The notes beneath the pieces were generated by a model. It was not told where the DNA came from. It saw nothing but the letters and a program-made list of their open reading frames with translations, and searched no databases. A stretch of 64,000 bases of DNA from an archaeon (GTDB lineage: Archaea; SpSt-1190; DYHY01), in the NCBI GenBank assembly GCA_043803745.1, contig JAZDJS010000015.1, forward strand, positions 1 to 64,000. The letters are read 5' to 3'. Below are positions 17,773 to 63,100 of the stretch, one piece after another (the first letter of the stretch is position 1; each line of letters starts with the position of its first letter). The translations under genes were made by a program, and so were the position numbers.

Positions 17773-18044
17773 GTGAAGCTTCTCCGCCCTAAAGGGTGGA
17801 GTCAACCGAAACGTTGGTCCGGCTACGCTGTGACTTCGCCCAAATTCGCATACATTTTTCGGGCTTCTTTGCTCCGCAGAGTTGTCCTCAGACAATCCAG
17901 CTAAGGGCAGGACCTCCGGCGTATCCAGGACATCCGTGCCCTGCTGAGCGACCGAAGGAAAGCGAAGTAAAGAGCTCAGCTTGGAAGGGCGACGGCTTTT
18001 CCGTGCTGAAGCGCCGATCCATTCGAGGCTGGACGCCCGAATGG
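17773..18044. mobile_element. Non-coding structured element with IS200/IS605-type end (non-autonomous derivative or omega-RNA-like), element A
   Basis: Minus strand ends CTCCACCCTTTAGGGCGGAG-AAGC-TTCAC (hairpin plus TCAC); several internal inverted repeats; carries shared motif at 18000-18017. Confidence 0.55.
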
Positions 18045-19469
18045 TTAGGGTGAAAAAAGTTTTTTCGGTTGTTCCCGATCGAGTTGCTTCGATATTTCCC
18101 CGTCGAACTTCTTCGCGAATTCTTCCAATTTGCTCTTGGGGATTGTAGCGCCGGCGGCAATGTTGTGCCCTCCCCCTAGCCCTCCGACTTCTTTTGCCGC
18201 TGTCCGGATTGCCTCGGAAAGGTTCGCGCCCCTTCTTACCAGCTGGGCTGTGGTTCTCGCGGAAACTTTGATGTTTCCTGGATCCTGGGCTGCCGTACCG
18301 ATGAAAACGCGCGAAGGATCGACGAGGCGCCCTCCGAGAGCTATCCCAATGACGATCCCTATTATTGTTGGCTTGACTTTTTCGGATTGGAATATTTGAA
18401 TGTTTTTCCCGAATAGACGAACTGGTTTTGCCTCAAGCTCCTGGAGCCCGTTCTTGATGTTTTCTCGGTGTTCCGCCAATAGTTCCTTCGCTTTCAAGTA
18501 CGCGTCTCCCCGGTCGCCCAAGCAGATTTTGATTCCGACATTTGCCCATTCATTCCGTCCGCATGAATTCAAAAGAGTTGAAAATTCCGTTGCATCCCTC
18601 GGTTCGGTGAGTTCCATCTCCTTAGGGAAGGTATATGTTTCCGTGACAAGGTTGCTTATTTGCCAGGGCTCAAGACCGACCGCTATTGCCCGCTCGTGAA
18701 TGCCGGTGACCAGCCGGGCAAGTTCTTCGGAAGGCAGGCGGTTGTATGTTCCGAGTGGGTTTATTCCCAGTTTGCGAAGAAATTCGGAACAGCCGGCAAT
18801 GCTTCCTGAAAGCCCAGGAAGAAAAGGATCGGTCGCATAGCTCAGAAAAACCGCTAGCTCCCTCGTTTCCCTTCCAAAAAACGGTAGCCCTTTTGTTGCA
18901 ACTACCTCTTTTGCCGCAATTCCCTTTTTGAGGATTTCCCGATTTAGCCCGGTTAATCCCCTTTTCGCCTGGATGTCCCCAACTGCGCCGGTTATTGCAA
19001 GAGGAATTAGTGAGGTCTCGCCAATGAGTCTTTCGGAGACGAGGTAGGCAAGTCCTGAAGCGGAAATTTCCGCTGAGCCGGAAAATCCTTGTTCGGCCGC
19101 ATTGAGGTGGCTTATTTTCCCGGATAGCCCCCCTTCAATCGGCTCGTGGTGGTCTATTATCACGCCGGGGCCTTTGGGGTCCGATAGTAGATTTTTCTGG
19201 CCGCTTCCAAAATCAACTAAAACGAACGCCTCCTCTTTCGGAACAAGTAAAATTGTTTCCGCGTCAAGTTGACGTATTGGAAAAATTTGAGGAGTTTTAC
19301 CCATCTTTTCAATTGTGTAGAAAATTATTGAGCCGCTCGTGAGGCCATCTGCGTCAATATGGCAGAATATTTTCGGGTTTTCGAGCGAGCTGAGCTTCTC
19401 GGCAGTTTCAGCAAGCTTTTCTTGGAACCCGCCAGGTTCCCAGCTGGGGAGTTTGTCACCGAACTTCAT
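18045..19469 (-). CDS. DHH-family phosphoesterase, archaeal RecJ/GAN (Cdc45)-like
   Basis: HIDADG, DFGSG, IDHH, GAVGD, SAR, GGGHNIAAGA (DHHA1). Confidence 0.9.
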   Translation of the reverse strand: MKFGDKLPSWEPGGFQEKLAETAEKLSSLENPKIFCHIDADGLTSGSIIFYTIEKMGKTPQIFPIRQLDAETILLVPKEEAFVLVDFGSGQKNLLSDPKGPGVIIDHHEPIEGGLSGKISHLNAAEQGFSGSAEISASGLAYLVSERLIGETSLIPLAITGAVGDIQAKRGLTGLNREILKKGIAAKEVVATKGLPFFGRETRELAVFLSYATDPFLPGLSGSIAGCSEFLRKLGINPLGTYNRLPSEELARLVTGIHERAIAVGLEPWQISNLVTETYTFPKEMELTEPRDATEFSTLLNSCGRNEWANVGIKICLGDRGDAYLKAKELLAEHRENIKNGLQELEAKPVRLFGKNIQIFQSEKVKPTIIGIVIGIALGGRLVDPSRVFIGTAAQDPGNIKVSARTTAQLVRRGANLSEAIRTAAKEVGGLGGGHNIAAGATIPKSKLEEFAKKFDGEISKQLDREQPKKLFSP

Positions 19470-19518
19470 TGGAGGGGGTGCTCAAATCAGAATATTTAAC
19501 TTCTTTGCACTAGCGGAG

Positions 19519-20244
19519 CTATTTGACCAGCTCATAATAAATCCGCTCAGATAGCCCTCCCCAGGAGAACCCTCCGGAAGATTTTCTTTTCTCCGTTATC
19601 TTGAAAATTCCCTCTGAGACCCCTTTAGAAAGATGATAATATGTCAGCCTTAGAGACAGCCTACCGTAGCGAGTAACATATTTTTTGTTTATTTGATATC
19701 CATACAAGGGGGTTGTTTCCCCGATGAAAATCTCGACAATATTGTCCCTTATTTTACTCCGGGTCTTGATTCGTTTGTTTTCGGCAACCGGCTTTCCTTC
19801 GGGATCAATTGCGCCGCTTTGAATCCTTTCGGATGAGATAACAAGTCCGTCTTTTGCAAGGGTAAGGGGGATTTCAATCACAATCAATGGCGGTTTGCCT
19901 TTTGAAACGATAAACGCGTTCAGGGAAGCGGCAGCTTCCTTGCCCCCGCTGGTAGTTGCTAAAAATCGTAATCCGGGTGTTAATGAAAGATTCTCAAGAT
20001 TGCCCTCCGATGCAACTATTTGGAACGGTATCTTCCGTGACAATAGAAAACGTTCGATCTTTTCCTTGCGGAATTCAAACGAGGTTTTTCCGGCGTTTTT
20101 CACAATTCCGACAAGCAACTTTTTTCCTATTGAACTGCAGGAAATCAAAAAATTTCGATGTCCTTTGTGAAAAACCTCGAAGGTTCCGAAACAGAGCAAA
20201 TCAGGTTCTTCGTCACCCGTTTGTTGCTTTTCGATCCTGACCAT
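19519..20244 (-). CDS. Archaeal phosphopantetheine adenylyltransferase-like domain fused to C-terminal winged-helix domain
   Basis: GTFEVFHKGH, R...I, N......G.PPL, LAKDGLVISSERI..G.IDPEG; tail LYGYQI...LTYYHL..G...SWG...RIYYEL resembles PadR-like wHTH. Confidence 0.75.
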   Translation of the reverse strand: MVRIEKQQTGDEEPDLLCFGTFEVFHKGHRNFLISCSSIGKKLLVGIVKNAGKTSFEFRKEKIERFLLSRKIPFQIVASEGNLENLSLTPGLRFLATTSGGKEAAASLNAFIVSKGKPPLIVIEIPLTLAKDGLVISSERIQSGAIDPEGKPVAENKRIKTRSKIRDNIVEIFIGETTPLYGYQINKKYVTRYGRLSLRLTYYHLSKGVSEGIFKITEKRKSSGGFSWGGLSERIYYELVK

Positions 20245-20249
20245 TCAAG

Positions 20250-20482
20250 TCACCCTTTCGTTTCCTCTGAAGTTTGGGTTGTTGGTTGGTTGTATTGTTA
20301 TTTATATTGTTTTCTATATAGAAATATTGAATTTAAACCACTTTCTAGCAAACCTCCACTCGAAACAACGGAGACAGAGTACAAAGGTTTCCACTGGAAA
20401 CGAAGGTCAATCCGAACAAGTCCATCGGAAGTGGAGGTTGAGTCACAATAAAAGTTAAAAACCCCTTTTTCCACTGGAACCT
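20250..20482. promoter_or_regulatory. Chromosomal replication origin (oriC): ORB elements around an AT-rich unwinding element
   Basis: TTCCACTGGAAACGAAGG at 20389; minus-strand GTTCCAGTGGAAAAAGGGGT at 20461-20480; ORB-like CTCCACTCGAAAC at 20354; minus TTCAGAGGAAACGAAAGGG at about 20253-20271; AT-rich tract about 20290-20340; directly upstream of cdc6. Confidence 0.88.
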
Positions 20483-20511
20483 GCGTTCTCTGAAGGTGAA
20501 GACAGTCTAAA

Positions 20512-21714
20512 ATGCAATCCTCTCTGAAAGAAATGTTTCAAACATATCTCAACAGGCAGTCAATATTCGTCAACAAGTCTGCACTGGACGACGAGTTCCT
20601 TCCGGTAAACCTTCTTCATCGGGACCGAGAGCAGAAGCAGATTGCGAGTATCCTTCTTCCAGCCCTCCGGGGGGAAAAACCCTCGAATCTGTTCATATAC
20701 GGGAAAACCGGGACGGGCAAGACAATTGGCGCGAAATCAGTTTGCAGGGAACTGGAAGGGTTCGCCCGGGAGAACAATCGGCCAGTGAAAATCGTGTATG
20801 TCAATGCGCAAATGAAGAAAGTCGCGGATACGGAATACCGGCTGATATCTTCAATTGCCCAGCAGTATGGCGTTAATCTGCCTTCGACAGGGCTCCCAAC
20901 TGAAAAAATATACAAAGCGTTCATATCCGCGGTTGAGAACACAAAAGCGCTCTCAATAATAATAATTGACGAAATAGACAACGTAGTACGGAAATGTGGA
21001 AACGATCTTCTTTACAATCTTATGCGGCTGAACAGCGAACTTTCAGAATCCAGGGTAAGCGTCATCGGAATTACCAACGACCTCAACCTGTTGAAATTCA
21101 TCGATTCGCGGGTGAAAAGCAGCCTTTCGGAAGAGGAACTCGTTTTTCCGCCGTATGATGCAAACCAGCTAAGCGACATATTGAGTTCACGCGCGGAAAT
21201 TGCGTTCCTTCCAAACGCGTTGGACCAGGCAGTAGTTCCCAAATGTGCTGCATATGCTGCAAAGGAACACGGGGATGCGCGGCGGGCTCTCAATATCTTG
21301 AGATTGGCTGGGGAGCTTGCCGAGCGTTCTGGAGCGTCAAAAATCGAAGCGGAACACGTTGATGCAGCTCTTGACAAGCTCGACACCGAAACCGTAGTGG
21401 AATTTGTGAAAAGTCAGCCTCTGCAATCGAAAGCGGTTTTGTACAGCATTCTTTTCCTGCGGAATTCGACGCCTGATTTCACAACGGGCGACATTTATGA
21501 CAAATACAGGCAAACCTGCACCCTTTTCAGGCAGAAATGCCTTACGCAACGGAGAGTGTCTGATTTGGTCACTGAACTCGCAGGGGTCGGAATAATCTCG
21601 ACGAACCTGATTTCCAAGGGCAGGTATGGCAGAAGCAAGACGGTTGACATCTTGATGAACGGACCGACCCTTGACAAGGTAGTCAATGTCCTCAAAGGGG
21701 ACTTTTCTTACTAG
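20512..21714 (+). CDS. cdc6: Orc1/Cdc6 replication initiator
   Basis: HR..E, YGKTGTGKT, IDEID, RVKSSL, FPPY, GDARRAL, C-terminal wHTH with GRYGR. Confidence 0.97.
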   Translation: MQSSLKEMFQTYLNRQSIFVNKSALDDEFLPVNLLHRDREQKQIASILLPALRGEKPSNLFIYGKTGTGKTIGAKSVCRELEGFARENNRPVKIVYVNAQMKKVADTEYRLISSIAQQYGVNLPSTGLPTEKIYKAFISAVENTKALSIIIIDEIDNVVRKCGNDLLYNLMRLNSELSESRVSVIGITNDLNLLKFIDSRVKSSLSEEELVFPPYDANQLSDILSSRAEIAFLPNALDQAVVPKCAAYAAKEHGDARRALNILRLAGELAERSGASKIEAEHVDAALDKLDTETVVEFVKSQPLQSKAVLYSILFLRNSTPDFTTGDIYDKYRQTCTLFRQKCLTQRRVSDLVTELAGVGIISTNLISKGRYGRSKTVDILMNGPTLDKVVNVLKGDFSY

Positions 21715-21906
21715 GGACAGAAAAAGTTCGGAGCCCTTGGTCCGTTTTTTGCCCTTCCCGGCAGTCTCCCGTAACTTTCAATAACCCATGTCCAGTCCGG
21801 CCCAGACCAGTCCAGCAACCACCTTGAAAAAGCCGTCTGAATTCCCTGTAAATTATCGGAAACAGGGCAACAACAGATAAAAACCACCCGCAAAGCCAGT
21901 CAGCCA

Positions 21907-23370
21907 ATGGGGCCAGAATATTCCGAGCCTGCCAACACACTCTCAATAGAATCGGTTGTGATGGAACTCCTGTCCAAGGGGGTCCTCATCCAGCCAGAAG
22001 CCCTAGAATACCTAAAAACGCGTCCGCACCTTCTCCAGACGCTTGACATTCCCTCGATAGGCGGCAGCCTCACTCTTCAGAAGCTGCAGGAAACCGAGGA
22101 TGCCGGAGGTTCCCTCCCGGTTTTGAACGACGAAGGCGTCCGCATACTTGAGGAATATGTCGAGAAATTCGACATGAAGGGGGAGCTCTCGGATTTCGTC
22201 AAGCATTTCTCAGACAGATACGCGACGCTTTCCGGGATGCTGAGAACGCGACCGGAACTCAAAAATCTGTGCTCAATAGGGCGCCTTTCATCAATCAAGG
22301 AGCGGGAAGACGTTTCCGTGATAGGTCTTGTCGGGGCGAAAAGGGAAACGCGCGCGGGGCACTATCTTATCGAGGTCGAAGATACCACAGGGCAGGCGAA
22401 AGTCCTCCTTCCGAAGAACAGCCCGGTTTCGAGAAAAGCCGACGAAATAGTGGATGACGAGGTAATTGCGATAAGCGGGACCGCATCCCGCGAGCTTCTT
22501 TTTGCCGAAGAAGTGATCTTTCCGGACGTTCCTCAGGCAACGGAATGGCCCGGCAGAAGCAAAAACGTGGCGGTAATGATTTCCGACGTTCACATAGGCT
22601 CCAAGCAGTTCCGAGCCGATCTTTTTGAGAACATGATAACCTGGATTAACAGCAGTGATCCGGTCGCGAGGCGGGCAAAATATCTGATTGTCGCAGGGGA
22701 TATTGTTGACGGCGTCGGAGTTTACAAGGGGCAGCAGAAGGACCTGGCAATAGCGAACATAGTCAAGCAATATGATTTTTTCTCAAGCTTCATTGACCGC
22801 ATAAGCAAGCGAATCCAGATATTTGTCGCGCCCGGCAACCACGACGCGTCGAGGGATTCGGATCCCCAACCCGCGATTCCTCGGGAATTCGCCCAGACAA
22901 TCTACGACCTGCCCAACGTTAGGATGATTTCCTCCCCCGCGACAATACAAATAGACGGGATAACGTTTCTCATCTATCACGGGACCGCCCTTGACAGCAT
23001 AATTGCCTCAATATCCTCGCTCAGACGGACCGGATATGACAACCCCCACCAGGCAATGATCCAGCAGCTTCGAAAGAGGCATCTCATACCCATTTACAAC
23101 GATCTCTCGAGAATGTTCCCGGACAGCAAGGACGAAATGATAATTTCAAAAGTCCCCAACGTCTTCCACTCCGGGCACGTCCACAAGCTGAGCTTCTCGA
23201 CTTATCGGGGAATCCGCGTCGTGAACTCGGGAACGTTCCAGGATCGCACGGCGTTCCAGGTGAAAATAGGACATCATCCTCAACCGGGGAAAATTCCATA
23301 CATCGAACTCGGCACCGGGGCAATCAATCTTCTCGATTTGGAGCCGCAGCATGGCACGGAGGGATCCTGA
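21907..23370 (+). CDS. polB: DNA polymerase D small subunit DP1 (3'-5' exonuclease)
   Basis: OB fold then SDVH, GDIVDG, PGNHD, YHG, RHL.P, GHVH, NSGTFQ; start may be 21961. Confidence 0.95.
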   Translation: MGPEYSEPANTLSIESVVMELLSKGVLIQPEALEYLKTRPHLLQTLDIPSIGGSLTLQKLQETEDAGGSLPVLNDEGVRILEEYVEKFDMKGELSDFVKHFSDRYATLSGMLRTRPELKNLCSIGRLSSIKEREDVSVIGLVGAKRETRAGHYLIEVEDTTGQAKVLLPKNSPVSRKADEIVDDEVIAISGTASRELLFAEEVIFPDVPQATEWPGRSKNVAVMISDVHIGSKQFRADLFENMITWINSSDPVARRAKYLIVAGDIVDGVGVYKGQQKDLAIANIVKQYDFFSSFIDRISKRIQIFVAPGNHDASRDSDPQPAIPREFAQTIYDLPNVRMISSPATIQIDGITFLIYHGTALDSIIASISSLRRTGYDNPHQAMIQQLRKRHLIPIYNDLSRMFPDSKDEMIISKVPNVFHSGHVHKLSFSTYRGIRVVNSGTFQDRTAFQVKIGHHPQPGKIPYIELGTGAINLLDLEPQHGTEGS

Positions 23371-26300: not shown

Positions 26301-26912
26301 GACCAGGTTCACGAATTGGACATTGCGTCGGAATATCCGCTTGAACTTTACGAGAAGGCCCAGGAGTATGTTTCCCCCGTGCTTCTTGAAAGACCGATTG
26401 AACGCTTGAAGAACCGTCTCGGAAAGCCCGCTCAGTACGAAGGGATGTCATTCACGCACGCCACTTCGAACATATCGGATGCAGTTTCAATAACCCGATA
26501 CAGGTTCCTTGGCGCAATGGTGGAGAAGGTCACGGAGCAGCTCGAGCTTGCCGAGCGGGTCACCGCCGTAAACGCCGACGATGTCGCAAACCTCGTTCTT
26601 TCGACGCACTTCATACGCGACATCAAGGGCAATATGAGAACCTTCTGTCGCCAGTCTTTCCGTTGCGTCAAATGCAACGAGAAATACCGCAGGGTTCCGC
26701 TGGTTGGACGGTGCTTGAAATGCAGGGGTAAACTGGTGCTGACAGTCTATCAGGGAACGATAGAAAAATACCTTGAGGCATCCAAGAGGATATCCGAAAA
26801 GTACAATGTTCCCCCCTACCTGAAGCAGGAACTGCTGATTCTGCAGAAGCGGCTTTCGGCGATGTTCGGAAAGGAAAACCAGAAAAACCTGGATTCGTTC
26901 TTTGCAGCCTAG
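23370..26912 (+). CDS. polC: DNA polymerase D large subunit DP2
   Basis: GPIRSAGGT, GGFRLRYGR, RMGRPEK, KDGTIRFD, LAPHTSAG, KRRDCDGDED, C-terminal Zn finger and PIP-like QKNLDSFF; no intein evident. Confidence 0.97.
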   Translation: MSEGFPAASEKITAYFSKIQRTVEAEYGIAKQARQKRLDPTERVEIALASDAAARVEGLLATIYPPLEGSGLAGRIRELEKRFGKGSERISLQIARDVFEEKFIKFKTVEERLEAGVRVGTGHLTLGIVTAPLEGITKIVSKPTRGGGKYISIYFSGPIRSAGGTAAAFAVLIADFLRRLAGFDPYDPDESELERYAAEIDDYDTRVVNLQYRIKSDEVRFLVKNIPVEISGDPTEEDEVIAFKDLPRIETNRIRGGMCLVVSSIGQKSAKLIKRLKKYGSEFQLLDWLFLEEYELLKKQIHSTDAEKATSPEQTGIETAPAKLPPNFAYMEDVPGGRPIFSFPSTPGGFRLRYGRARNTGFSTVGFHPASMAVLSDFIAIGTQLKIERPGKGATAAVVDSIEPPTVLLSTGEVRRIEKAEEARLLLKQKKISEILFVGDILISYGDFVSNGHKLVPAGYVEEVWLLELRKAMGLAGMVPETAAEFVNIPTLRFLELLETPREVSFPEALSIGTKMKIPLHPKFTYFYHRVSTANLKELCAALQGTRTAALDLVQTPSLKRTLELMCFPHAVDPNGRIVAEADPAAALRISFAIDSDPGAFESIPAANNPLEFVNKLSKIEIRDLGGTYIGARMGRPEKAERRLLDGRPQILFPVGQAGGRLRSVNEAAKTIYNAPLAYRICQTCGKRNIFLTCSCGGETVQKQVCVICQKITEEPVHCNIPTGFAASADVNLDRHLKAAEKSLNEKIPPLIKGVRGLSSRLKIPEKIEKGVLRAKNNLFVNKDGTIRFDATNLPLTHFKPKEIGVSMEKLLHLGYDTDIHGLPLSNSGQILELKPQDIILSDFEDSKRGIMSGAEYFVRIANYVDNLLVKFYGLPSYYNIVSREDLAGHLVIGLAPHTSAGIVGRIIGFSKARAGFAHPMFHAAKRRDCDGDEDSVMLLIEALIDFSREFLPNTRGSSTMDVPLVLTTILDPTEVDDQVHELDIASEYPLELYEKAQEYVSPVLLERPIERLKNRLGKPAQYEGMSFTHATSNISDAVSITRYRFLGAMVEKVTEQLELAERVTAVNADDVANLVLSTHFIRDIKGNMRTFCRQSFRCVKCNEKYRRVPLVGRCLKCRGKLVLTVYQGTIEKYLEASKRISEKYNVPPYLKQELLILQKRLSAMFGKENQKNLDSFFAA

Positions 26913-27253
26913 CCTTTGGGAGGCGCAGGATCGGCGCTTTCCGTGGTCAGGGCAGCCTCAGGTTTGTTGGGTTTTTCCCGCCTAACCGTTCCGCACCTGG
27001 GGCAAGCTAGAAGACCGTCAGCACCTAGCCAGCTGAATTTGCATTCCGGATTCTCGCAATATACCACTTCCTCGCCTTCCCCTTCGGGAAGAGAGCCGCA
27101 CTGGGAACATTTCAATCCTTCACGGAGCTCCCAGCCCCAGCCGCATTTTTTGTTCGAGCAGTAAACCATCCCAAATCGCAGTCGCTCCCTTTGCCGCACC
27201 CTCCTTGCCTGTGCAATCGCGGCAGAAAGAGGCTTCGTCTTCCGTCTTCCCAT
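26909..27253 (-). CDS. Small double zinc-ribbon protein (YCSxKxCGWGW family)
   Basis: Two repeats VYC-x4-C-x2-W...C-x2-CG; paralog at 42487-42753. Confidence 0.7.
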   Translation of the reverse strand: MGRRKTKPLSAAIAQARRVRQRERLRFGMVYCSNKKCGWGWELREGLKCSQCGSLPEGEGEEVVYCENPECKFSWLGADGLLACPRCGTVRREKPNKPEAALTTESADPAPPKG

Positions 27254-27292
27254 TGCCAAAATGAGAAAATTCCTGTTTTTATTCTTTCCTGC

Positions 27293-27483
27293 GTGAAACT
27301 TTCCTGAGCCTAGGACTTCGCCTGATGGCTCAGCCGCCTCCTTGAGGCGGAAATATCCGTGCTTAAGCACCGATGCCCAGGGGGACACAGGCGAGCTTCG
27401 ACCGCAAAGAGAAATGCGCTTAAGGGGGCTCGCCGCATTGCCCGACATCGCTTGGCTAGTTCAAGTAGTTCAAGTAGTTCAAG
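27293..27483. ncRNA. Structured intergenic element B (putative RNA or palindromic mobile-element relic)
   Basis: Consecutive stems CTGAGCC/GGCTCAG, CCGCCTC/GAGGCGG, GTGCT/AGCAC and a long CGATG..GGCGAGC/GCTCGCC..CATCG hairpin; ends in (TAGTTCAAG)x3. Confidence 0.45.
27457..27483 (+). repeat. Tandem repeat (TAGTTCAAG)x3
   Basis: Three exact 9-bp copies. Confidence 0.95.
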
Positions 27484-27531
27484 GATTCATAGGTGTTAGC
27501 CCGCAGCAATTCAATTTCTTCGATAAGGCAA

Positions 27532-39343: not shown

Positions 39344-39535
39344 CCGCCAAAAATTTTCTCTTTTCCCGTGTCCGTGCTGTAGCACCGACGGTCCGAGGAC
39401 CGAACGGATTTTCTCTTGGCAAAGAGAAAAGGGGTTCCTGGTGGACTCCTCTGCCGAGGACCTTCGGCCGCCAAAAGCTTCCCTTTCCCCGAGGGATTTT
39501 TTCTTTGGAAAAGAAAAAAGGGGCTCCTGGTGGAC
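39344..39535. repeat. Degenerate two-unit direct repeat including the tRNA-Arg 3' end and its trailer
   Basis: CCGCCAAAA..TTT.CCCG...GGATTTT..AAAAGGGG(T/C)TCCTGGTGGAC at 39344-39446 and 39468-39535. Confidence 0.75.
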
Positions 39536-39604
39536 CCGCTGGGATTTGAACCCAGGTCAAAGGCTCCGCAAGCCCCCATGCTATCCAAGCTATACCACGG
39601 GTCC
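39528..39604 (-). tRNA. tRNA-Arg(GCG)
   Basis: GGACCCG acceptor stem, anticodon loop TTGCGGA, GGTTCAAATCC T-arm, encoded CCA. Confidence 0.95.
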
Positions 39605-41876: not shown

Positions 41877-42336
41877 GGCAGAACTTTGCCGAATCGCAGC
41901 TGAGATAGTTGGACGCGCGATTGCACTCAAGGACTTTCTGACAGATGAGAAAACCGCGTCGGTAGGCTACTGTTGCATATACTGTCACGACCCGGAGGAA
42001 TACCGGGCTCGTCTGACAACTGCCGCCGGAATAGGGAAAATTGTCAGGGAAACGCCAACCGGACCGTTCATACTTCTGCGTGAGCCGATTCAAACAGCCG
42101 CCGGAAGCTTGCATATACTCAAAATAAGGGCTCCCGATCCGACTCATCCTGAGCTAGGGCATGCGGATTTCACCGCGGCCGACTATCGGAAACTTAAGAA
42201 GTGGGCACTTGGACGGGAAGGATTCAAGCTAATAGTTAGGAAAGAGCACGAAATGATTGAGTTAAAGTCTCCAGAGTTCAAGGACGTCCGGGCATATTTT
42301 CCGGACCCGCCCATAGAAACAATCTTAGGAATTTAA
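41869..42336 (+). CDS. Hypothetical protein (possibly VOC/YecM-like fold)
   Basis: 155 aa, start overlaps upstream stop; LKIRAPDP...GHADF. Confidence 0.6.
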   Translation: MDEAELCRIAAEIVGRAIALKDFLTDEKTASVGYCCIYCHDPEEYRARLTTAAGIGKIVRETPTGPFILLREPIQTAAGSLHILKIRAPDPTHPELGHADFTAADYRKLKKWALGREGFKLIVRKEHEMIELKSPEFKDVRAYFPDPPIETILGI

Positions 42337-42486
42337 CCCTTTCCGCGCAAATCTCCCATCCTTTCAGGGCGGAGATACGCGTGATCTTCGACCGCGAAGA
42401 TAGGCTCGCTCCAAGGATTTCACACCATTGGCCGGCTTTGCCGGCCCATCTTAGGAATCCGCGGGCTTGAGCCCGCGGTAGTTCAA
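42337..42486 (+). mobile_element. Non-autonomous IS200/IS605 derivative (PATE-like, 150 bp), element E
   Basis: Follows TTTAA; left hairpin ATCTCC..CCT-TTC-AGG..GGAGAT; right end GAAT-CCGCGGGCT-TG-AGCCCGCGG-TAGT-TCAA, matching the IS608-type GAAT guide / TCAA cleavage arrangement. Confidence 0.75.
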
Positions 42487-48900: not shown

Positions 48901-49578
48901 TTATAAAACTGACACAAGCCCTGCCGCCTTAAGCCCTTCGGCAAGCCCTTCGGCAAGCCCTTCGGCAAGCCCTTCGGCAAGCCCGTTGAAGACGAATTGA
49001 ACTGCAATCGCGGCAAGAACAAGCCCCATTACGCGGACAACAACCTTCACCGCAATTGGCCCCGTCTTTTCAAATACGCGCGCCCCGAGCTCGATGGCAA
49101 ACCAGGACAGCAGGAACGCCGCGAGAATCGCGACAAGCACAAGCGGTTTTTGTACGAGAGTCGCCGAATCGAAAAGAACAATCGCGGTGGTTATCGCGCC
49201 TGGGCCGGTAAGGAGCGGAATTGCCATCGGCGTCACGACGACATCTTCGATTTCCCTTGCAAGTTTGTGTTCTTCGTCGCTGTATTCGGTTTTCGTGTGC
49301 TTCCCGAAAAGCATCTCGAGCGAGATTATGAAAAGGAGAATCCCCCCAGCAACCTTGAATGAGTACATCGAAACTCCTAGCGCATCGAAAAAGAACTTTC
49401 CGGCAACGGCAAGCGTCATAAGCACGCTGCACGCGATAATCAGCGCCTGCCTGACCATCTTCTTTCTTGCCCGGGCCTTCCGCAAGTGCAAGATTGAGCC
49501 AAATATGGGGATGTTCGCGACGGGGTCTATTATCAGAAAGAGGGTGATTGTGCAGTAAGCGAAGAAGCCAAAGTCCAT
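48901..49578 (-). CDS. marC: MarC family membrane protein
   Basis: DP..NIP.F, F.VAGGILLF, P.AIPLLTGPGAIT, RVMGL.LAAIAVQ. Confidence 0.93.
   Translation of the reverse strand: MDFGFFAYCTITLFLIIDPVANIPIFGSILHLRKARARKKMVRQALIIACSVLMTLAVAGKFFFDALGVSMYSFKVAGGILLFIISLEMLFGKHTKTEYSDEEHKLAREIEDVVVTPMAIPLLTGPGAITTAIVLFDSATLVQKPLVLVAILAAFLLSWFAIELGARVFEKTGPIAVKVVVRVMGLVLAAIAVQFVFNGLAEGLAEGLAEGLAEGLKAAGLVSVL
48931..48984. repeat. 12-bp tandem repeat (AAGCCCTTCGGC)x4.5 encoding GLAE repeats at the MarC C-terminus
   Basis: Exact copies at 48931, 48943, 48955, 48967 plus a partial copy. Confidence 0.95.
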
Positions 49579-52993: not shown

Positions 52994-53188
52994 CCTACGT
53001 GCAGTGAACTTATGTAATTGTTGCGACGGAAAAAAGGTGTTCGGCGAAGCCCATTTGAGATTAAACAGATTCCTGCGCCTATTCAGCCTGTTGAAGACTG
53101 AATAAACAACCTTTCACTTCAGTTGGGCTGAAAAAAGAACGCATTCTTCTTGAAATTGGCGAAAAAGACAACTCAATTCAAATTAGAT

Positions 53189-55939: not shown

Positions 55940-55981
55940 TATGCTTCCCTTAAACTAGTATAAAATCATATGTTTTTGCTG

Positions 55982-56404
55982 TTGATATCATTGACATCAA
56001 TGATATCAATCTCATATTAGTGACATTGGATTGAATCTCGGGTAACAAAAGACCCCTCACATACCACCCTCTCGAAAATTGTAGTGGTTACACATACCTA
56101 ACATACCTATATGCCCACAAGCTATCGCAACTTCAAACACATAAAAAGTCTCTAACATTTCATCTGTTTTTTTCGTATTTGTACTGCTTTCAAGGCCAAA
56201 TGATGGGTTGACGGGCAGTTGATTGATTGTTTGCGGGCATTCCCTCAAGTTAGTATTGATATCATTAATGTCATTCATTTTATTGATGTCAATAACCTCA
56301 TTGACTCAGAAAAAAGGCAAAGTATAAATACTTTTCCACATTTTTAATGTCAATGACCTCATTGATATCAAAAACTTTTTGATGTTGAAATAGGATTAAC
56401 CTCA
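55982..56404. repeat. Clusters of in-phase 9-bp direct repeats, consensus WTRAYVTCA
   Basis: 55982-56008 (3 units), 56256-56309 (6 in phase, two degenerate), 56344-56370 (3 units), 56396-56404 (1 unit) in an AT-rich intergenic region. Confidence 0.85.
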
Positions 56405-56419
56405 ACAACAACAATTAGC

Positions 56420-56767
56420 TTAAATTCTCTCAAAGGATAGCCCCCTACCGTTACGGAAATCGACATAAACGCGGTTCGCTCGTTTTTTTAAGCTTTCCTT
56501 GTCGAAAATGACCCTTTCGCAGCCGGGCTTCCCTTCGGAAGCCCGTTCAAACACAATCTCTCGAAAAGAAGCACATTCTGGAACTATGTGTTTGGAAGCA
56601 ATATCTTTTTCAATGAAGAGCTGCGAATGAAGGAAAATAAGATCCTCCACAAAATTGCCACCGATGCAGAAACATGATTTTCTAAACCATTTGGGCGCTT
56701 TGGGAGCGAGTTCACGTTCTTTCATCCAATCAGTCAATTTCCGAGCTTCCAAACTAAAGAAAGACAA
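56420..56767 (-). pseudogene. Possible gene fragment downstream of tRNA-Gln
   Basis: 115-codon frame with weak TTG start; the same frame continues upstream through two stops (TGA, TAA) toward the tRNA 3' end. Confidence 0.3.
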
Positions 56768-56912
56768 CGGGAGGACTCAAACCGACGGGTCCCTGATGTG
56801 TTACTTCAAGAAAAGTAAGCGTTTTTTCAGTTCCAACAGTTTCGTCCAATCAGATCGCGTTTCGACAGAATAACAGCCCTTTTTATAGTCGTCTTCAGAC
56901 CTTGAAAGCAAA

Positions 56913-56988
56913 TGGTAGCCCCAGGCAGATTCGAACTGCCGTCCCAGGCTCCAGAGGCCCGTATCCTTGACCGCTAGACGATGGGGCT
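56913..56988 (-). tRNA. tRNA-Gln(CTG)
   Basis: AGCCCCA acceptor stem (A1-U72, archaeal Gln), anticodon loop CTCTGGA, GTTCGAATC T-arm, encoded CCA. Confidence 0.95.
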
Positions 56989-57401
56989 TTCCCAGATTTC
57001 GCAAGGCGCCAACCTCTTTAATAAATCTTTGCCCCAGTCAAGACACATATTCGAAAACTTCGTTTAGTATTGGAGAGGGGTGGCCATAATATATGTTTGG
57101 AAAATGTCAAATGAAACTAAGCATCCCTTGACAATTAACGTAACCATTGTATCGGAGCCGACAGGTTGCAAATAATTCAACAACAAACTGTTATAATTTA
57201 CCCTAGTATGGTATAAAAAAATATGGTTTTCCAGTCCTAATAGGGCGAAATATCTACCTTCAAGCACCTGAAGGCGCTGTTTATTTGTTTTGTGGGCTAA
57301 TATCTTGACCCTTGGGTTGGTTCGTGTCACTCAATAACGGCCTCCCTTAGATACCCCGAGGCCTGCCCCCGGTTGGAAGCTTCATTTTGGATGAGAACCC
57401 A

Positions 57402-57773
57402 TCATCCCCGCGCAAATCTGCGCCATTTCTCAGCTTTTTCTTCAAGTTTATTTGCGAAATTATGACTTAGGAAATATCCGGAATATTTGCTTTCCCGGTC
57501 AATTAACCCCCCACGCTCAAGCGTTGAAACAATTCGATATATTGTCGCCCTTGGCCCCTGAACCTTGAGCTCCGAAGCAAACATTTGTCTGCCTGATCTT
57601 GAGTAGCATCCCGCAGCTTTCATTTCAAGTATTATCTGTATTGCAATCTCAACCTGGCTTTTTGCAACGAAATCCTCCAGAAGCAGTTTCAGGAAGTCTC
57701 GATTTCCTGAAAAGCCATCCGTATCGGTTTTCTGAGACGAACGTTCAGTTTCCAAGAAAACACCCTCTTCCAC
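57402..57773 (-). CDS. Winged helix-turn-helix protein
   Basis: RATIYRIVSTLERGGLI...Y.LS..F. Confidence 0.7.
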   Translation of the reverse strand: MEEGVFLETERSSQKTDTDGFSGNRDFLKLLLEDFVAKSQVEIAIQIILEMKAAGCYSRSGRQMFASELKVQGPRATIYRIVSTLERGGLIDRESKYSGYFLSHNFANKLEEKAEKWRRFARG

Positions 57774-57988
57774 AAACAGACCATTTCCATATTTTTGAGA
57801 CGAATATATATGTCTGCAGTTGAAGCCCCATCATTTGCCAAACCCTCCTGAAAAGAATGAAATCGCCTGTTTTTCGAGCATCGTCTCAGCTAACCGGGAT
57901 TGGACTATTTATTCATTGACCAGAGCATTCCTCTAATATTTCAAAAAAAGAAAAAGCCTAAAAGCAACAACTTGTCATAAAAAGCAAC

Positions 57989-58417
57989 ATGTCAACAACA
58001 GATTTGCCAATTTCTGAAATAACCATCAGGAAGTTCGAACGGCCCGAGAATATTGACAAAAAAGTGCTAATAAGGCGATTTTGCATTTCCCTTGGTTTGA
58101 TAAATTCAGGAGATAATCGTGCTGGCTGCGTTGACGTTTTTGAGGTAATTTTCAATTCAAAAGAACCTTTAAGTGCCGAAGAAGTGTTTGAATCGCTTGG
58201 GAAGAAACTTGCACTCTCAGGAATACGTCGGCATTTGCGGAGGCTTGAAAGAATAAGGATTTTGGAACACCGAAACTCCAAATATCAGATAGCGGAAGGT
58301 CGAAATCTCTCTTATTGCCTGAAATACGTTGTGAAGGACTACTTGATTGAAGACATTTTTAATCGGATATCAGAATACGGCGAAAAGCTTCAAAATTTGC
58401 TCGATTCGGAGAAATAA
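57989..58417 (+). CDS. Winged helix-turn-helix protein (ArsR/TrmB-like)
   Basis: ITIRKFERP, F..SLGL, LSAEE, SGIRRHLRRL. Confidence 0.75.
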   Translation: MSTTDLPISEITIRKFERPENIDKKVLIRRFCISLGLINSGDNRAGCVDVFEVIFNSKEPLSAEEVFESLGKKLALSGIRRHLRRLERIRILEHRNSKYQIAEGRNLSYCLKYVVKDYLIEDIFNRISEYGEKLQNLLDSEK

Positions 58418-58419
58418 GG

Positions 58420-58707
58420 TCACAGTTTGTCGAATGAGATATATATCCCTTCCATAGAATGTGCTATTTCTTCCCCGAATTTCGTCAAAATAACGTGTTT
58501 TATGCGCCCTTTTTTCTCGAATTCAACAAGCCCCAGTTTCTTCATATCCTGGAGAATCCGGACGCAATGGGAATACGTGCAATCAGCTTCCTTCGCAAGA
58601 ATCGAGGCATATTTCTTCAGCCCCTTCAGTTTCGTTATGATTCTCGCCGGTTTGTCATGCAGAAACATTAGCTCGAGATCTTTTCTTGCCCCCATTGCCA
58701 TTTTCAA
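58420..58707 (-). CDS. Small winged-helix (MarR-like) DNA-binding protein
   Basis: YAS.LAKE.DCTYSH...IL..M...GLV.F.K.GR.K...LT..G. Confidence 0.85.
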   Translation of the reverse strand: MKMAMGARKDLELMFLHDKPARIITKLKGLKKYASILAKEADCTYSHCVRILQDMKKLGLVEFEKKGRIKHVILTKFGEEIAHSMEGIYISFDKL

Positions 58708-58809
58708 TAAACCCCCAAATTCTCCTATATTCTAAAAGATTGTGACAATCACTATATAACCGTTTTGATGCAACCATTGAGTTAGTATATTTTTACTGCA
58801 AGGATGATA

Positions 58810-59868
58810 TTAAAAATACCACTTCAGCGCAATGTTCTTTATTATCTCCATCAAAAAGGTGAAGATTAGTCCCATAATCACAGAGGTAACAAGATTTGTC
58901 AACCCAAGAGTGGGCTCTAAAAAGTAGCTCGCAGCAGACTTAAGGACCCAAACGGAAACCCCGACAAGCACCCCTGTGTTGATGTAATGGAGCATAAGAG
59001 AGAAATTTGGGAAGGAATCAATCGTTTTCCCGGAAACAACTGAAATGGCCGCCATCAGGAAGAAGAACAGCGAGCCGTAGAGGAACGAGAAAACCGTGTT
59101 GACAATGCTGGTGCTCCCCGCCATCTGCTCGAGTCCTTTGTAAATCGCGACGCCAACCATTACAAGGGAGACAACATACGTAAGCAAGGAAAACCTCATG
59201 AACTTGAAGGATGTCTTGAAATCGTTCACGAACCCGAGAACCGCGCTTTCAAGCTGGAAACCGCGTAGGAGCAGATAGCCGCCGACAACGGCAAAAATTA
59301 TCCGCCAGCCGGACATTCCGAAAAGGGCAAGCATTATTGCGACAATTCCCGGAACGCCAAGGACAAGCCGCGCCATTTCCTTGTCCTTCGTTATCTTCTT
59401 CAACCAATCCATTGCCGTGTAATAGGTGTTTTCAAGCCGCTCCGCCTGTTTCACTACAAGACGCCGTATCCCAGTTATCTTAATCCTCGACTGCAGGAGC
59501 GGAAGGACCTGGTCGTCCTCGGCGCCGTCAGTCACGAGGATTGCGCCGCTGTATTTTCCGCCTTTCAGAACGTGTTCAATTTGCTCGGAAACGATTCTGT
59601 CAGAAGCAACCCCGACCTTGACCGAGCCAGTGACAACCGCAACCTCGCCCTTGACCTCCTTTGCGACCCGGACCGCCTCAAACATTGTGTTTGAATCGTT
59701 GTCAGCGGGGTCCGCCAGGGAAAGGGCAATAGCAGCTTCAAGAACCTTTCTTTCCCCGACAATTGGGCCGTCAAACTGGGTCTTCCTGCCGAGATCGTCG
59801 TCCCTATCGACGCACATTACAATGAGCCGGTCGCTGATTTTTTCACTCTGTTGCCGCAAAATTAACAT
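58810..59868 (-). CDS. DUF373 family membrane protein
   Basis: CVDRDDDLG, DP.D.D.N, TDGAED, VKQ, LGVPG; start uncertain. Confidence 0.9.
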   Translation of the reverse strand: MLILRQQSEKISDRLIVMCVDRDDDLGRKTQFDGPIVGERKVLEAAIALSLADPADNDSNTMFEAVRVAKEVKGEVAVVTGSVKVGVASDRIVSEQIEHVLKGGKYSGAILVTDGAEDDQVLPLLQSRIKITGIRRLVVKQAERLENTYYTAMDWLKKITKDKEMARLVLGVPGIVAIMLALFGMSGWRIIFAVVGGYLLLRGFQLESAVLGFVNDFKTSFKFMRFSLLTYVVSLVMVGVAIYKGLEQMAGSTSIVNTVFSFLYGSLFFFLMAAISVVSGKTIDSFPNFSLMLHYINTGVLVGVSVWVLKSAASYFLEPTLGLTNLVTSVIMGLIFTFLMEIIKNIALKWYF

Positions 59869-60076
59869 CCTCTTTGGTTATAGTTTTCCGCTTGCCAATC
59901 CCGGCGAGCACCCCGGACTTTGCAGCCAGCCTCTTCGCAGTTTGTTCAAGGAAGTTGTGAAGTTCCTCGACGGATTCCCGTTCGAACCGCGCCCTGCCCG
60001 CCTTTCTCATGAGCCTCACGACGCCCGCTCTTGGAAGAAGTCCCTTTTCTCTTGAATCGGAAGAACCGCCAGCCAT
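59843..60076 (-). CDS. Archaeal histone (HMf-like fold)
   Basis: LP.A.V.RLMRKAG.AR, LE, A....RKTITKEDV. Confidence 0.88.
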   Translation of the reverse strand: MAGGSSDSREKGLLPRAGVVRLMRKAGRARFERESVEELHNFLEQTAKRLAAKSGVLAGIGKRKTITKEDVNFAATE

Positions 60077-60189
60077 TCCGCCTCTGTGCAGGCCTTCTTT
60101 TATTTAATTTTGTGTTTTCTGGCGATTTTATCGGAAAACCGTCCAATTGACGGTCACCATTATAAAATAGTCCTTCGATTCATACGGCA

Positions 60190-61032
60190 ATGCCTGTGAT
60201 TTCCCCTCCAACGGACCGGGAAGAATATCTCCGCGCCTATTACAACGCCATGAAACCCGAGGAAGTTGAGTTTCTCGAATCCCTTGAACAGACCGGAGAC
60301 GGCGACCCAATAGACGTCCGGAACGCAAAGCTAGCATTTATTGCGAACCACTACTTCAATTTCGAGTTCAGGACTTGCAGCGCATTCAGACGGGGATATT
60401 TTCTTCTCGAGGAGTTGGACGAGACGGTAAAGGGAATTGACCTTGCCCCTTTTTTGAGAAGAAATAAAAAAGACGGTTTCAAGCCAGATTACCCCAAATA
60501 CTCTATCACGTCAATTCGGGTTTCTCCGGAAGGGCGCAAATCCGATGACTGCTGGAAGGGTCCCAAATGCCCCGACCGGGTGCAAATCCTGCCAGACGGG
60601 ACACACCTCGTCCACAAATATTACATCGACGCGCCAGCGGGATTCGAGGTGTGTTTTTCCGGAGAGCCGATATGCTACGCTTCCTTTTTTCCCTCAAGCG
60701 AAGATGCCCTCACAATAAGGCAGCTCCAAGGCGTTCGGTTCATTGACGCCTCTCGGAGAATTTTCCGCGGAACGCGCCCCCTTGTCCCATTCAACTACAA
60801 AGGGATCCTTCTCGATGTTTCAACCGAAATAGCAAGAGCCCTCGGATATTCCCAGATAGGAATCCAGACGGGACAGGCGCATCCCTCAACAAGGCTATTC
60901 TATCCGGAAACCGGCGCACCCCACCTCCCTCTTGAGAACGCTCTGCGAATATACGATGCCTTTGCCGAAGCAAATGGTTTCGAGCAGGGACCGGATTCCA
61001 ACTGGTACAGATCCCTTGCACAAACGGGCTAG
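60190..61032 (+). CDS. Hypothetical protein (C-terminal half weakly VirK/DUF535-like)
   Basis: 280 aa ORF; L.IRQLQG and YD.FA...GF....NW patterns. Confidence 0.5.
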   Translation: MPVISPPTDREEYLRAYYNAMKPEEVEFLESLEQTGDGDPIDVRNAKLAFIANHYFNFEFRTCSAFRRGYFLLEELDETVKGIDLAPFLRRNKKDGFKPDYPKYSITSIRVSPEGRKSDDCWKGPKCPDRVQILPDGTHLVHKYYIDAPAGFEVCFSGEPICYASFFPSSEDALTIRQLQGVRFIDASRRIFRGTRPLVPFNYKGILLDVSTEIARALGYSQIGIQTGQAHPSTRLFYPETGAPHLPLENALRIYDAFAEANGFEQGPDSNWYRSLAQTG

Positions 61033-61107
61033 CGGCCAAGCCCTCCGGGAATTTGATGCTTTTACAGGAAACCTCCAGAAAACAGATAAAAAGGCTGAGA
61101 ACGGTCG

Positions 61108-62142
61108 GTGCCCATGCAGGCAGATTTCGAATCGGTTGTTAGGAAGCTTGTGGAGGATTCCCAGCTTCCGAGGGAAGAGATACTCTCATTAATCGAGGGG
61201 AAGAAAAAAGAGCTCCCCGGGCTGATTTCGGATCTCGGGGCAGCCCATATTATCGCTAACGAACTCGGGATACAGACGCTCCCCTCATTGAAAACAATCC
61301 AGAAAATAGAGGATCTAAAGCCCGGAACCCCCTCGGTCGAGCTCATTGCCCGTGTTTTGCGCGTTTATGAGAAGCGGGAATTCGACAAGGGAGGTCGAAA
61401 GGGACAGGTCGCTTCCCTGCTGATCCTTGATGAAACGGGCACAACCCGCCTTGTCCTCTGGGGAGTTCTCGCAAACCTGGCTGAAACAGTTACACAAGGG
61501 GACATTCTCAAGGTTTCCAACGCATATGTGAAGCAGGATCTGCAGGGGCGTTCCGAGCTTCACGCTTCGAACAGGACAAGAGTTGCGCTCAACCCGGAAG
61601 GGGAGGGAAAGGATCTCCCTTCAGCGTCTTCAGGACTGGCAAGCGCGGGAACATTTTCAGCAAAGGAGAAATACATTTCCGAGCTTTCAGAAAACGAGAC
61701 GGCTCAGGTAACCTTCCGCGCAACAGTAATGAAGGTTTTCGACACGCGTTCGCCCTTCTACGAAACCTGCCCGACTTGCAGCAAGTCAATCAACACCTGC
61801 GCCGAGCACGACCACGCGACAACGAAGCGCGCGCTGATACTGAACATCCTTGTCGACGACGGAACCGGGGTTATCCGGGCAACCCTTTTCAAGCAGGCTG
61901 CGGAAGCGCTCCTTGGGATGAAAACGGAGGAAGCTGAGAAGCTGGCCGACCTTGCCGGCAACCCGCTTGTAATCTATGCTGCAACGAACAAGCTTATCGG
62001 AACAGAGAGGGTTTTCACCGGTCGCGCCCGCTACAATTCGGTTTTCGAGCGGATGGAGCTTGTCGCAAACTCCGTCCTGAACGTCGATGTCGCCAGGGAA
62101 GTCGAGAAGCTTACGAAGGAACTGGAAGCAACGGCGAAATAA
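61108..62142 (+). CDS. rpa: Replication protein A (OB folds plus Zn finger)
   Basis: GLIS..GA..IIA..LG, DETG..R.VLW, CPTC, DDGTG.IR..LF. Confidence 0.9.
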   Translation: MPMQADFESVVRKLVEDSQLPREEILSLIEGKKKELPGLISDLGAAHIIANELGIQTLPSLKTIQKIEDLKPGTPSVELIARVLRVYEKREFDKGGRKGQVASLLILDETGTTRLVLWGVLANLAETVTQGDILKVSNAYVKQDLQGRSELHASNRTRVALNPEGEGKDLPSASSGLASAGTFSAKEKYISELSENETAQVTFRATVMKVFDTRSPFYETCPTCSKSINTCAEHDHATTKRALILNILVDDGTGVIRATLFKQAAEALLGMKTEEAEKLADLAGNPLVIYAATNKLIGTERVFTGRARYNSVFERMELVANSVLNVDVAREVEKLTKELEATAK

Positions 62143-62166
62143 GTGAGAAGGGTCATTAACTGAAAA

Positions 62167-62868
62167 ATGGGCTTGTCCGACGAAATGCGCGAACTTCAGG
62201 ACCAGATTTACTCGGACTACCGGCTAGGCAGCGACCTAGCAACATTTGAAAGAAGATTCCTTGGAAAAGACCGAGAAGTCGTGAAATACGGACAAGAATG
62301 TCTTTGCATAACTGCCCTGGGAAATGCAGTGGGATATCGCCCCGAAGTTCCCAGCGGCGACTTCCTTCCGGAAGTAACCGCGCTCATAGATGCAGTTGAA
62401 GAATACCGCAAGCCAAGGGAGATAGACCGTTCCGAGATGGATTTCTCATCTTCGTTGATATGCGCTCTCGTCCATGCCGTTCACGCAGCAAACGCAGATG
62501 CGGCCTACTGGATCGAACTGCAAGATGCCCGGGGAGTGGGCCGGACAATACAGCGGGCAAAAAACTTTCAGGGACGATATCCTAATGAGTTCAGGGAAAT
62601 GAAGGAAGACGGTGGTTGGGAGGAAATAGGTTATTTTGATTTCGACAAATATTTCTATGCGCTTGCACGAATATGCGCAACGGACTCAAGGAAACTACTT
62701 GCAAGCGGATCTAGCGACCGCACGGAAACGGCCCAGAAAGCTCGGGAGCCCACCGAATATTTCAGAGCAATTGCAAAGACGGCGGAACTGGAACCTCCCG
62801 CGGATGCGGTCGCCCTCGTATCAACAGTTGAAGCGGAAATAGCAAAATATCAATTCGCCGGCTTGTGA
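62167..62868 (+). CDS. Hypothetical protein
   Basis: 233 aa ORF, acidic and helical-looking, no recognised motif. Confidence 0.55.
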   Translation: MGLSDEMRELQDQIYSDYRLGSDLATFERRFLGKDREVVKYGQECLCITALGNAVGYRPEVPSGDFLPEVTALIDAVEEYRKPREIDRSEMDFSSSLICALVHAVHAANADAAYWIELQDARGVGRTIQRAKNFQGRYPNEFREMKEDGGWEEIGYFDFDKYFYALARICATDSRKLLASGSSDRTETAQKAREPTEYFRAIAKTAELEPPADAVALVSTVEAEIAKYQFAGL

Positions 62869-63100
62869 AGACCGAACTCCGTTCCCGCCGGTTGAGCAAA
62901 AGCCGAGTAACGGGCGAGGCCTGGCATCTCCGAGCGCGTAGCCCCTCCGCAGAGAGTCCGTGCCGAAAATAGAATTTTTCCAAAAACTATGCACCGAAGA
63001 GGTCGCTATTCCGGAAAATATACTGTTCTCCGGCAAATCGGCTGAGCAATCATGCAAAGTCGGTATTCGCAACCAAACGCCAGACAAAATGCGAATACCG
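62865..63100. ncRNA. Structured intergenic element D upstream of radA
   Basis: TCCGTGC (62957)...GCACCGA (62997) motif, CTCCGCAGAG shared with element A, perfect 11-bp inverted repeat 63061-63100. Confidence 0.35.

Follow-up and report, generated by a model that had tools for sequence, protein, structure and literature searches.

The first 64,000 nt of the archaeal contig JAZDJS010000015.1 (hereafter the window) contain a short imperfect hairpin that recurs in four intergenic gaps, and the question is what kind of element this hairpin belongs to and what it does at the sites where it is found. The original prediction for this stretch, made from the pattern TCCGTGC-N(4-30)-GCRCCGA, was that the structured elements dispersed over these gaps form an undescribed family and could be orphan guide-RNA scaffolds. 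We analyzed the whole assembly (G000; 1,231,229 bases, 51 contigs, 54% G+C, 90% complete) and a set of related genomes. The hairpin turns out to be one half of a two-hairpin module, and this module is a real, structured, and lineage-specific repeat family that is absent from Rfam; the original prediction covered half of the unit and missed its link to tRNA genes. As judged from sequence comparison, the module may act in cis as a lineage-specific structured element in the 3′ regions of transcripts and spread together with duplicated 3′-end cassettes, a reading to which we assign a probability of about 0.5.

A module of two hairpins

The pattern has four exact matches in the window (copies A to D, Table 1), all on the + strand and all outside real genes, where dinucleotide-preserving shuffles give a chance expectation of 0.02 matches per window and 0 of 100 shuffles reach four or more. 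Both the shared orientation of the four motifs and their gene-free location, as originally described, are thereby confirmed. The whole assembly holds eight exact copies, five on the contig of the window, two on C26, and one on C48. In the complete unit of about 32 to 45 nt, this first hairpin (hp1, TCCGTGC-loop-GCACNGR) is accompanied at a distance of one to four bases by a second hairpin (hp2), which has a stem of 3 to 6 bp and a UGAG, UGCG, or CGAG loop. hp2 is located 3′ of hp1 in some copies and 5′ of it, as the reverse complement, in others. According to their setting, the units can be grouped into four types (Table 1). One of the words that had been noticed as shared between window copies, CTCCGCAGAG, is indeed real and corresponds to hp2 on the other strand (CUC-CGCA-GAG). 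The shared words GACTTCGCC and GCTCAGC are real as well and are part of a separate covarying motif, which is described below as the companion motif.

A covariance model (R1) was built from 11 seed copies, in which 87.6% of the cells pair compared with 20 to 46% for slid structures. The covariation score of the seed is 0.193 versus 0.079 after shuffling, and the seed score was reached in 0 of 500 shuffles. In 25 unique copies from three genomes, 233 cells are Watson-Crick pairs, 5 are G.U, 16 are A.C, and 19 are other combinations. Most of these other, non-pairing cells belong to the third pair of hp1, which is CC in 7, GG in 8, CG in 5, AG in 2, TG in 2, and AA in 1 of the 25 copies. The internal C.C mismatch, which had been reported as kept, is thus found in all four window copies (copy A carries a U.G pair in addition), but it is not a constant feature genome-wide, where the third stem pair varies. 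Compensatory variants occur in the stem of hp1 (TTCGTGC/GCACGAA and GTGT/ACAC) and in hp2 (GG/CC, GC/GC, and CC/GG), and some copies retain the architecture with an entirely different stem sequence (TCCAGC/GCTGGA, TCCTGGCT/AGCCGGA, and CAATGC/GCATTG).

These replacements bear on the idea that hp1 is a palindromic duplex-DNA site for a dimeric protein, for which the near-palindrome GTGC-N4-GCAC and its one invariant half-site could be taken as an indication. The loop of hp1, however, ranges from 2 to 27 nt so that the spacing of the half-sites is not fixed, stems undergo compensatory change or are exchanged entirely without loss of the architecture, and the second hairpin covaries as well. A dimer-binding site is therefore very improbable.

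At the gathering threshold, a search of the whole window against Rfam 15 returned two tRNAs only, and at E ≤ 10 (copy A) and E ≤ 1 (17 element loci) nothing except tRNAs and sub-threshold noise was obtained, meaning that the elements match no Rfam family. Together with the covariation above all 500 shuffles and the enrichment in non-coding DNA (see below), this blank bears out the claim that the dispersed, structured intergenic elements form a family not described before. The listings and abstract openings returned by a full-text literature search contained no account of such repeats. A hammerhead ribozyme, whose three-way junction requires CUGANGA followed by the stem II hairpin and by GAAA, was considered separately and rejected: CUGAGGA is present in the units and forms hp2, no hairpin follows, no GAAA is in place, and no Rfam ribozyme was matched.

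The proposed link to guide-RNA scaffolds and IS200/IS605 ends

According to the original prediction, a TnpB, IscB, or TnpA protein whose gene lies elsewhere could use the elements as orphan omega-RNA scaffolds or as IS200/IS605 ends. What the units have in common with omega-RNAs and with the subterminal hairpins of IS200/IS605 elements is a general likeness, namely an imperfect intergenic hairpin with a kept mismatch. In contrast to those systems, the unit of 32 to 45 nt is far below the size of a scaffold, and it is embedded in tRNA-like repeats and terminators instead of standing beside transposon-like ends. A cognate partner gene was searched for in G000 with PF01797 (Y1_Tnp), PF01385 (OrfB_IS605), and PF07282 (TnpB Zn-ribbon), each giving 0 matches, while the controls for these three families matched in 6 to 8 of 14 genomes. 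The proposed left boundary GTGAA (TTCAC on the other strand) is merely a 5-mer that lies 227, 60, and 92 nt from hp1 in copies A, B, and D, respectively, and does not mark a consistent border. At copy D it overlaps the stop codon of the open reading frame (ORF) at 62167-62868, and it is not present in the aligned flanks of the other copies. Likewise, no cleavage word of the TTAC/TCAA type was found at a fixed distance from the hairpin. Because of the lack of cognate genes and of any Rfam match, the inconsistent border, and the tRNA and terminator context, this part of the prediction is unsupported, and we regard it as extremely improbable.

Host sites at the 3′ ends of genes

Of 26 copies, 22 lie outside ORFs of at least 150 aa, though such ORFs cover 88% of the genome, and the remaining four are within ORFs that overlap a tRNA gene or run past a plausible start. 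The comparison of intergenic and coding sequence across the whole genome thus gives an enrichment of the motif in non-coding DNA. Moreover, 15 of the 26 copies are located within 300 nt of a tRNA gene or the signal recognition particle (SRP) RNA gene, compared with 10.5% of the non-ORF DNA. The SRP RNA gene (C28:19753-20032) has a unit at a distance of 210 nt and, like the RNase P RNA gene (C19:54361-54715), was located with a score under the gathering score. The possibility that the unit belongs to either of these RNAs was rejected, as both genes are found elsewhere.

The units occupy the loops of pre-existing hairpins at the 3′ ends of genes, and three kinds of host can be distinguished. The first is a small stem, CCGT(S)AACGG, within terminator modules that are U-rich and bidirectional. 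In gene sense, such a module consists of (CCA)-GAACCCC, a U-rich hairpin, CCGTTGACGGG, and an A-rich run, and it ends many genes. At least 17 terminator modules are without a unit, and six carry a unit exactly between CCGTG and AACGG. A filled and an empty locus can be compared at tRNA-Arg, which in the same-genus genome G001 is followed by one terminator module, with no second module and no unit, and in G000 by a terminator, a partial copy of the tRNA tail, a second module, and the unit. As a side observation, the terminator module is roughly symmetrical and recurs after both tRNA and protein genes.

The second host is the T-loop of tRNA-like repeats, which lack D and anticodon arms and duplicate the 3′ tail of the tRNA ahead of them. 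An archaeal tRNA intron with a bulge-helix-bulge motif was rejected for these inserts, since inspection of the GGGTTC-[unit]-AAAATCCC borders revealed no 4-bp helix with staggered 3-nt bulges. The third host is the apex of the companion motif, GAYYUCG..CUCRRCC. At L025 (C49:31903-32130 in G000), tRNA-Met is followed by two tRNA-like minihelices in which the acceptor stem is the same and CCA is encoded; they lack D or anticodon arms and hold two-hairpin inserts of differing sequence in their T-loops.

tRNA-tail repeats and the companion motif

Further copies of tRNA tails are common in this genome: 24 of the 44 tRNA genes have one to three additional same-strand copies of at least their last 10 nt, 55 to 150 nt downstream, where less than one would be expected by chance. 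The copies comprise the 3′ strand of the T-stem and the 3′ strand of the acceptor stem, with duplicated tails of 10 to 26 nt, and they often form tandem arrays with periods of 64 to 123 nt (for example, L014, L024, and L016). In nine arrays, the CCA and the usual terminator are confined to the last tail copy. The spacers between the tail copies usually hold the companion motif, here in the form GAYYUCG-[variable hairpin]-CUCRRCC.

About 49 canonical copies of the companion motif are present genome-wide, and the window contains it at 27314-27335 (+), 63040-63061 (-), and 17943-17980 (+). Its pairs 3-6′ and 4-5′ covary in non-ORF DNA, where three forms are seen (CT/AG 19, TT/AA 17, and CC/GG 13). 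Of 329 non-ORF matches, 68 have Watson-Crick bases at both pairs, versus 166 of 2813 matches in ORFs, and the motif is enriched in non-ORF DNA. One compensatory change between orthologues was observed in the motif, which often lies within a further stem. On the reverse strand, YYGAG..CGARR could form tandem G.A pairs, and this is where a likeness to the archaeal kink-turn (K-turn) and K-loop (box C′/D′) motifs bound by L7Ae may be seen: CUGA-type and GA-containing strands, possible sheared G.A pairs, and a short loop. It differs from these motifs by the absence of a 3-nt bulge, of terminal C and D boxes, and of a guide architecture. The likeness concerns the companion motif and not hp1; a K-turn reading of hp1 and hp2 was rejected on sequence. 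Locus L013 (C36:30800-32700 in G000) contains at least five GAYYUCG..CUCRRCC motifs that are 45 to 70 nt apart and separated by CTTTGGTTGG..CCAACCAAAG hairpins, and this array is present twice on the contig, one copy having a two-hairpin unit.

In another reading, the units would reside in stand-alone small RNA genes that are antisense to tRNA 3′ ends and act in trans, for example as ribonucleoproteins pairing with the tails. As read by eye, seven of eight informative copies have the TCCGTGC strand antisense to the tRNA close by; this strand also bears the complement of the tRNA tail, and types 3 and 4 have U.G on this strand where the opposite strand has C.A, although the other wobble positions disagree. 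The reverse-strand companion motif, with its potential tandem G.A/A.G pairs, would by analogy resemble a K-loop. On the other hand, promoters and transcript ends of such genes are putative, the companion motif of copy B has the opposite sense, and the terminal C and D boxes are missing. Acceptor-like pairing of the tRNA-tail repeats was no different from controls in a general test (5.71 vs 5.63); locally it was weakly above shuffles (2.78 vs 2.54, with a shuffle maximum of 2.74) in a noisy set of 245 matches. Antisense RNA genes are considered decidedly unlikely.

Distribution and conservation among relatives

With R1, 45 matches are found in G000 at E ≤ 1, a number that includes second-strand matches of the near-palindrome, and 23 at E ≤ 0.01. 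Across 41 genomes, the model has 23 matches in G000, 8 in G003, and 2 in G001, within one family, and 0 in G002. Among the other 37 relatives, three have one weak match each, located in coding-like sequence, and 34 have none. A scan of public contigs with a 17-base pattern gave 17 matches that are mostly chance occurrences in bacteria, and the one relevant match is in a contig identical to a locus of G003. Viral contigs gave 0 matches to one strict pattern.

Metagenome contigs from a related species with 76 to 81% gene identity contain four distinct type 1 units that have the same stems and differing hp1 loops. One orthologous pair of units is found beside a TFS-like gene. Here, 45 of the 48 positions of the unit are identical and two of the three changes fall in the hp1 loop, compared with 84% identity over 357 nt in the gene itself and hardly any alignable sequence in the intergenic flanks. 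The conservation of the stems and of the hp2 loop next to changing hp1 loops and flanks points to purifying selection on the folded structure. At this TFS-like Zn-ribbon gene, it was also observed that 16 to 50 nt of the gene 3′ end are repeated beyond the cassette of terminator plus unit in both species (C26:19480-19720 in G000 and L085:10900-11200).

A possible mobile DNA or a possible transcript 3′ element

The main rival to a cis-acting 3′ element is a selfish, non-autonomous mobile DNA, in which a hairpin would insert into hairpin loops and be moved in trans by an enzyme encoded outside the assembly, its structure being kept for recognition by that enzyme and not for a role in RNA. Filled and empty sites with precise borders, both orientations relative to neighboring genes, mosaics with other repeat motifs, copy numbers that differ strongly among relatives, and host sequence duplicated beside the cassettes (10 to 26 nt of tRNA tails and the 3′ end of the TFS-like gene) are all in line with such mobility. 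The closest parallel is formed by the repetitive extragenic palindromes (REPs) and bacterial interspersed mosaic elements (BIMEs), which are short extragenic palindromes with a conserved irregularity that occur mostly at gene 3′ ends, in both orientations, as mosaics, and in lineage-specific forms. The present repeats share the imperfect palindrome with its conserved irregularity, the 3′-end position, and the lineage-specific sequence, and with 22 of 26 copies outside long ORFs, both orientations, and mosaics, they behave as extragenic palindromes. They differ from REPs and BIMEs in having an archaeal host and two hairpins, in being inserted into the loops of other hairpins, and in being tied to tRNA genes and tail copies. 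Unlike in REP-bearing genomes, no gene for the REP-associated Y1 transposase (RAYT) was matched in G000.

This lack of an enzyme extends further. In addition to the three transposase-related families named above, Cas1, Phage_integrase, and RVT_1 have no match in G000. With regard to Phage_integrase (XerA-type), we note that the control matched 14 of 14 genomes, and its absence from G000 may reflect the missing 10% of the genome. Nor do the borders resemble those of miniature inverted-repeat transposable elements: when CCGTG-[unit]-AACGG was compared by eye with the empty CCGT(S)AACGG, neither terminal inverted repeats nor a target duplication of unit size could be seen. Furthermore, the viral contigs are devoid of the strict pattern, and the orthologous copy has been kept in a species that is diverged by about 20%, with changes concentrated in the loop. 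Taken together, a REP-like mobile element is a serious possibility but, in our view, an unlikely one.

A related reading starts from the duplicated gene ends. Elements that integrate at tRNA genes leave partial repeats of the tRNA 3′ end, as in attachment (att) sites and the target duplications of casposons, and direct repeats of the last 10 to 26 nt of a tRNA downstream of the intact gene are what is seen here. The spacers, however, are only 55 to 150 nt long, are gene-free, contain conserved structured motifs, and often form tandem arrays of two to four, and no integrase or Cas1 is matched in G000. As a further alternative, which seems rather improbable, the unit might be the structure recognized by an undescribed insertion process through which short cassettes are added at gene 3′ ends. 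On this reading, each event would duplicate 10 to 50 nt at the end of its target, such as a tRNA tail or the TFS-like gene, and successive events would give rise to the small tandem arrays that follow more than half of the tRNA genes. The logic resembles that of casposon or CRISPR-spacer integration, although no known integrase was matched in this genome.

The cis-acting 3′ element that we favor would be a structure in the 3′ trailers of transcripts that most likely binds a putative protein or else blocks or guides 3′-end processing and decay, and it would spread through the duplication of 3′-end cassettes. The purifying selection on structure suggested above, because 45 of 48 positions of the unit are kept with changes mostly in the loop next to flanks that barely align, agrees with such a role. 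Several observations weigh against it. The uneven copy number among related genomes (23, 8, 2, and 0) is that of a selfish repeat, and both orientations relative to neighboring RNA genes are found, so that DNA-level insertion fits as well as an RNA function. The wobble cells favor neither strand consistently: in the hp1-to-hp2 orientation they include 5 G.U versus 16 A.C, with nine of the A.C cells representing one terminal pair. In minimum-energy folds, hp1 is formed at copies B and C and not at A or D, and the thermodynamic support is modest even for B and C (z about -1.8 to -2.3). Finally, the detailed orthologous comparison covers one pair only, transcription of the units is a prediction from sequence, and the partner protein or processing enzyme is putative.

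The genome devotes a visible share of its scarce intergenic DNA to the module, the second covarying motif, and the tRNA-tail repeats. In DPANN archaea, hardly any non-coding elements have been explored. Should the module act as RNA, this would point to a lineage-specific protein-RNA system that works on the 3′ ends of transcripts in an organism whose gene set is minimal; a mobile module would point to insertion by a mechanism for which no enzyme can be recognized. The host is probably a member of the Micrarchaeota, and in either case the module supplies a defined covariance model and clear targets for sequencing RNA from the few members of this lineage that are in culture.

The four window copies and their surroundings

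The genes around copies A to D are ordinary archaeal housekeeping genes. Copy A lies between convergent genes for an NTP-transferase and a DHH phosphoesterase and is a composite: next to a full hp1 it contains an orphan half-site, an hp2, and a long variant of hp2. Copy B is located between a small Zn-ribbon ORF and secD/F, with the PolD large subunit and SecD/F encoded by the neighboring genes. Copy C stands beside tRNA-Arg and an EamA transporter gene, and copy D, situated between an unassigned ORF and radA, has genes for an RPA-like protein and RadA as neighbors. The individual features are listed in Table 1.

Table 1. Types of the two-hairpin module and features at the four window copies (contig and position are given for loci outside the window)
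Feature	Position	Strand	Structure and basis
Type 1	window C, C15:84418, C26:19616, C48:16003, C6:5106, C28:19473 (with insert)		closing stem, CCGTG-[hp1-T-GGTCTGAGGACC]-AAACGG, three-way junction
Type 2	window B, C26:2438		hairpin, ATA, hp1, then TGCCC..GGGCA
Type 3	C51 (twice), C42, G001		in T-loop of tRNA-like sequences, GGGTTC-[unit]-AAAATCCC
Type 4	window D, C19:38211, C36:32513, C43:4795, C49:54915		between GAYTTCT and GC..GCTCARCC
Copy A, hp2-type hairpin	17872-17881	+	CUC-CGCA-GAG; by-eye sequence comparison
Copy A, long hp2 variant	17884-17913	+	by eye resembles inserts at C28:19473 and in the tRNA-Gln repeat
Copy A, orphan half-site	17933-17939	+	TCCGTGC; sequence
Copy A, stem with CUGAG/CGAAG motif	17943-17980	+	GCTGAGC...GCGAAGT...GCTCAGC; sequence; companion motif family
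Copy A, hp1	18000-18017	+	TCCGTGC-TGAA-GCGCCGA; exact match; weak model match 17992-18034, 12.6 bits
Copy B, companion motif	27314-27335	+	GACTTCGCC-TGAT-GGCTCAGCC; companion motif family
Copy B, type 2 unit	27336-27387	+	hairpin GCCGCCTC..GAGGCGG, AAATA, hp1 27356-27373, hairpin TGCCC-AGG-GGGACA; model match 27356-27387, 23.6 bits; homologue at C26:2438
Copy C, type 1 unit	39363-39410	+	closing stem CCGT/ACGG, hp1 39371-39388, hp2 GGTC-CGAG-GACC 39390-39401; model match 59.3 bits; three-way junction fold on both strands
Terminator module 2	39409-39441	-	U-rich hairpin and GGAACCCC; pattern match
Partial tRNA-Arg 3′ tail copy with CCA	39440-39449	-	GGAGTCCACCA; precedes terminator module 2
tRNA-Arg(GCG) with own terminator module	39497-39604	-	tRNA 39528-39604, terminator module 39497-39527; Rfam match, sequence
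Copy D, type 4 unit	62936-63005	-	- strand reading: GACCTCT, hp1 62957-62997 (27-nt loop), hp2 CTCTC-TGCG-GAGGG 62943-62956, GCTACGC...; model match 19.5 bits; relatives are the other type 4 loci
Copy D neighborhood, companion motif	63040-63061	-	GACTTTGCATGATTGCTCAGCC within stem GGTATTCGCA../..TGCGAATACC; 6-bp flanking stem

The small ORF next to copy B encodes 85 aa at 26909-27166 (-), contains two CxxC pairs (Zn-ribbon-like), is without a Pfam match, and narrows the gap in which the copy lies. Directly upstream of the secD/F-like gene, TAGTTCAAG is present three times in tandem at 27457-27483 (+), and AGTTCAA words akin to it come after the units at C26:2438 and C48:16003. The self-BLAST of the genome was of little use for the units, the repeats being too short and too diverged; it showed that 42332-42486 and 48931-48993 of the window are repeated elsewhere in the genome, with two and six matches, respectively.

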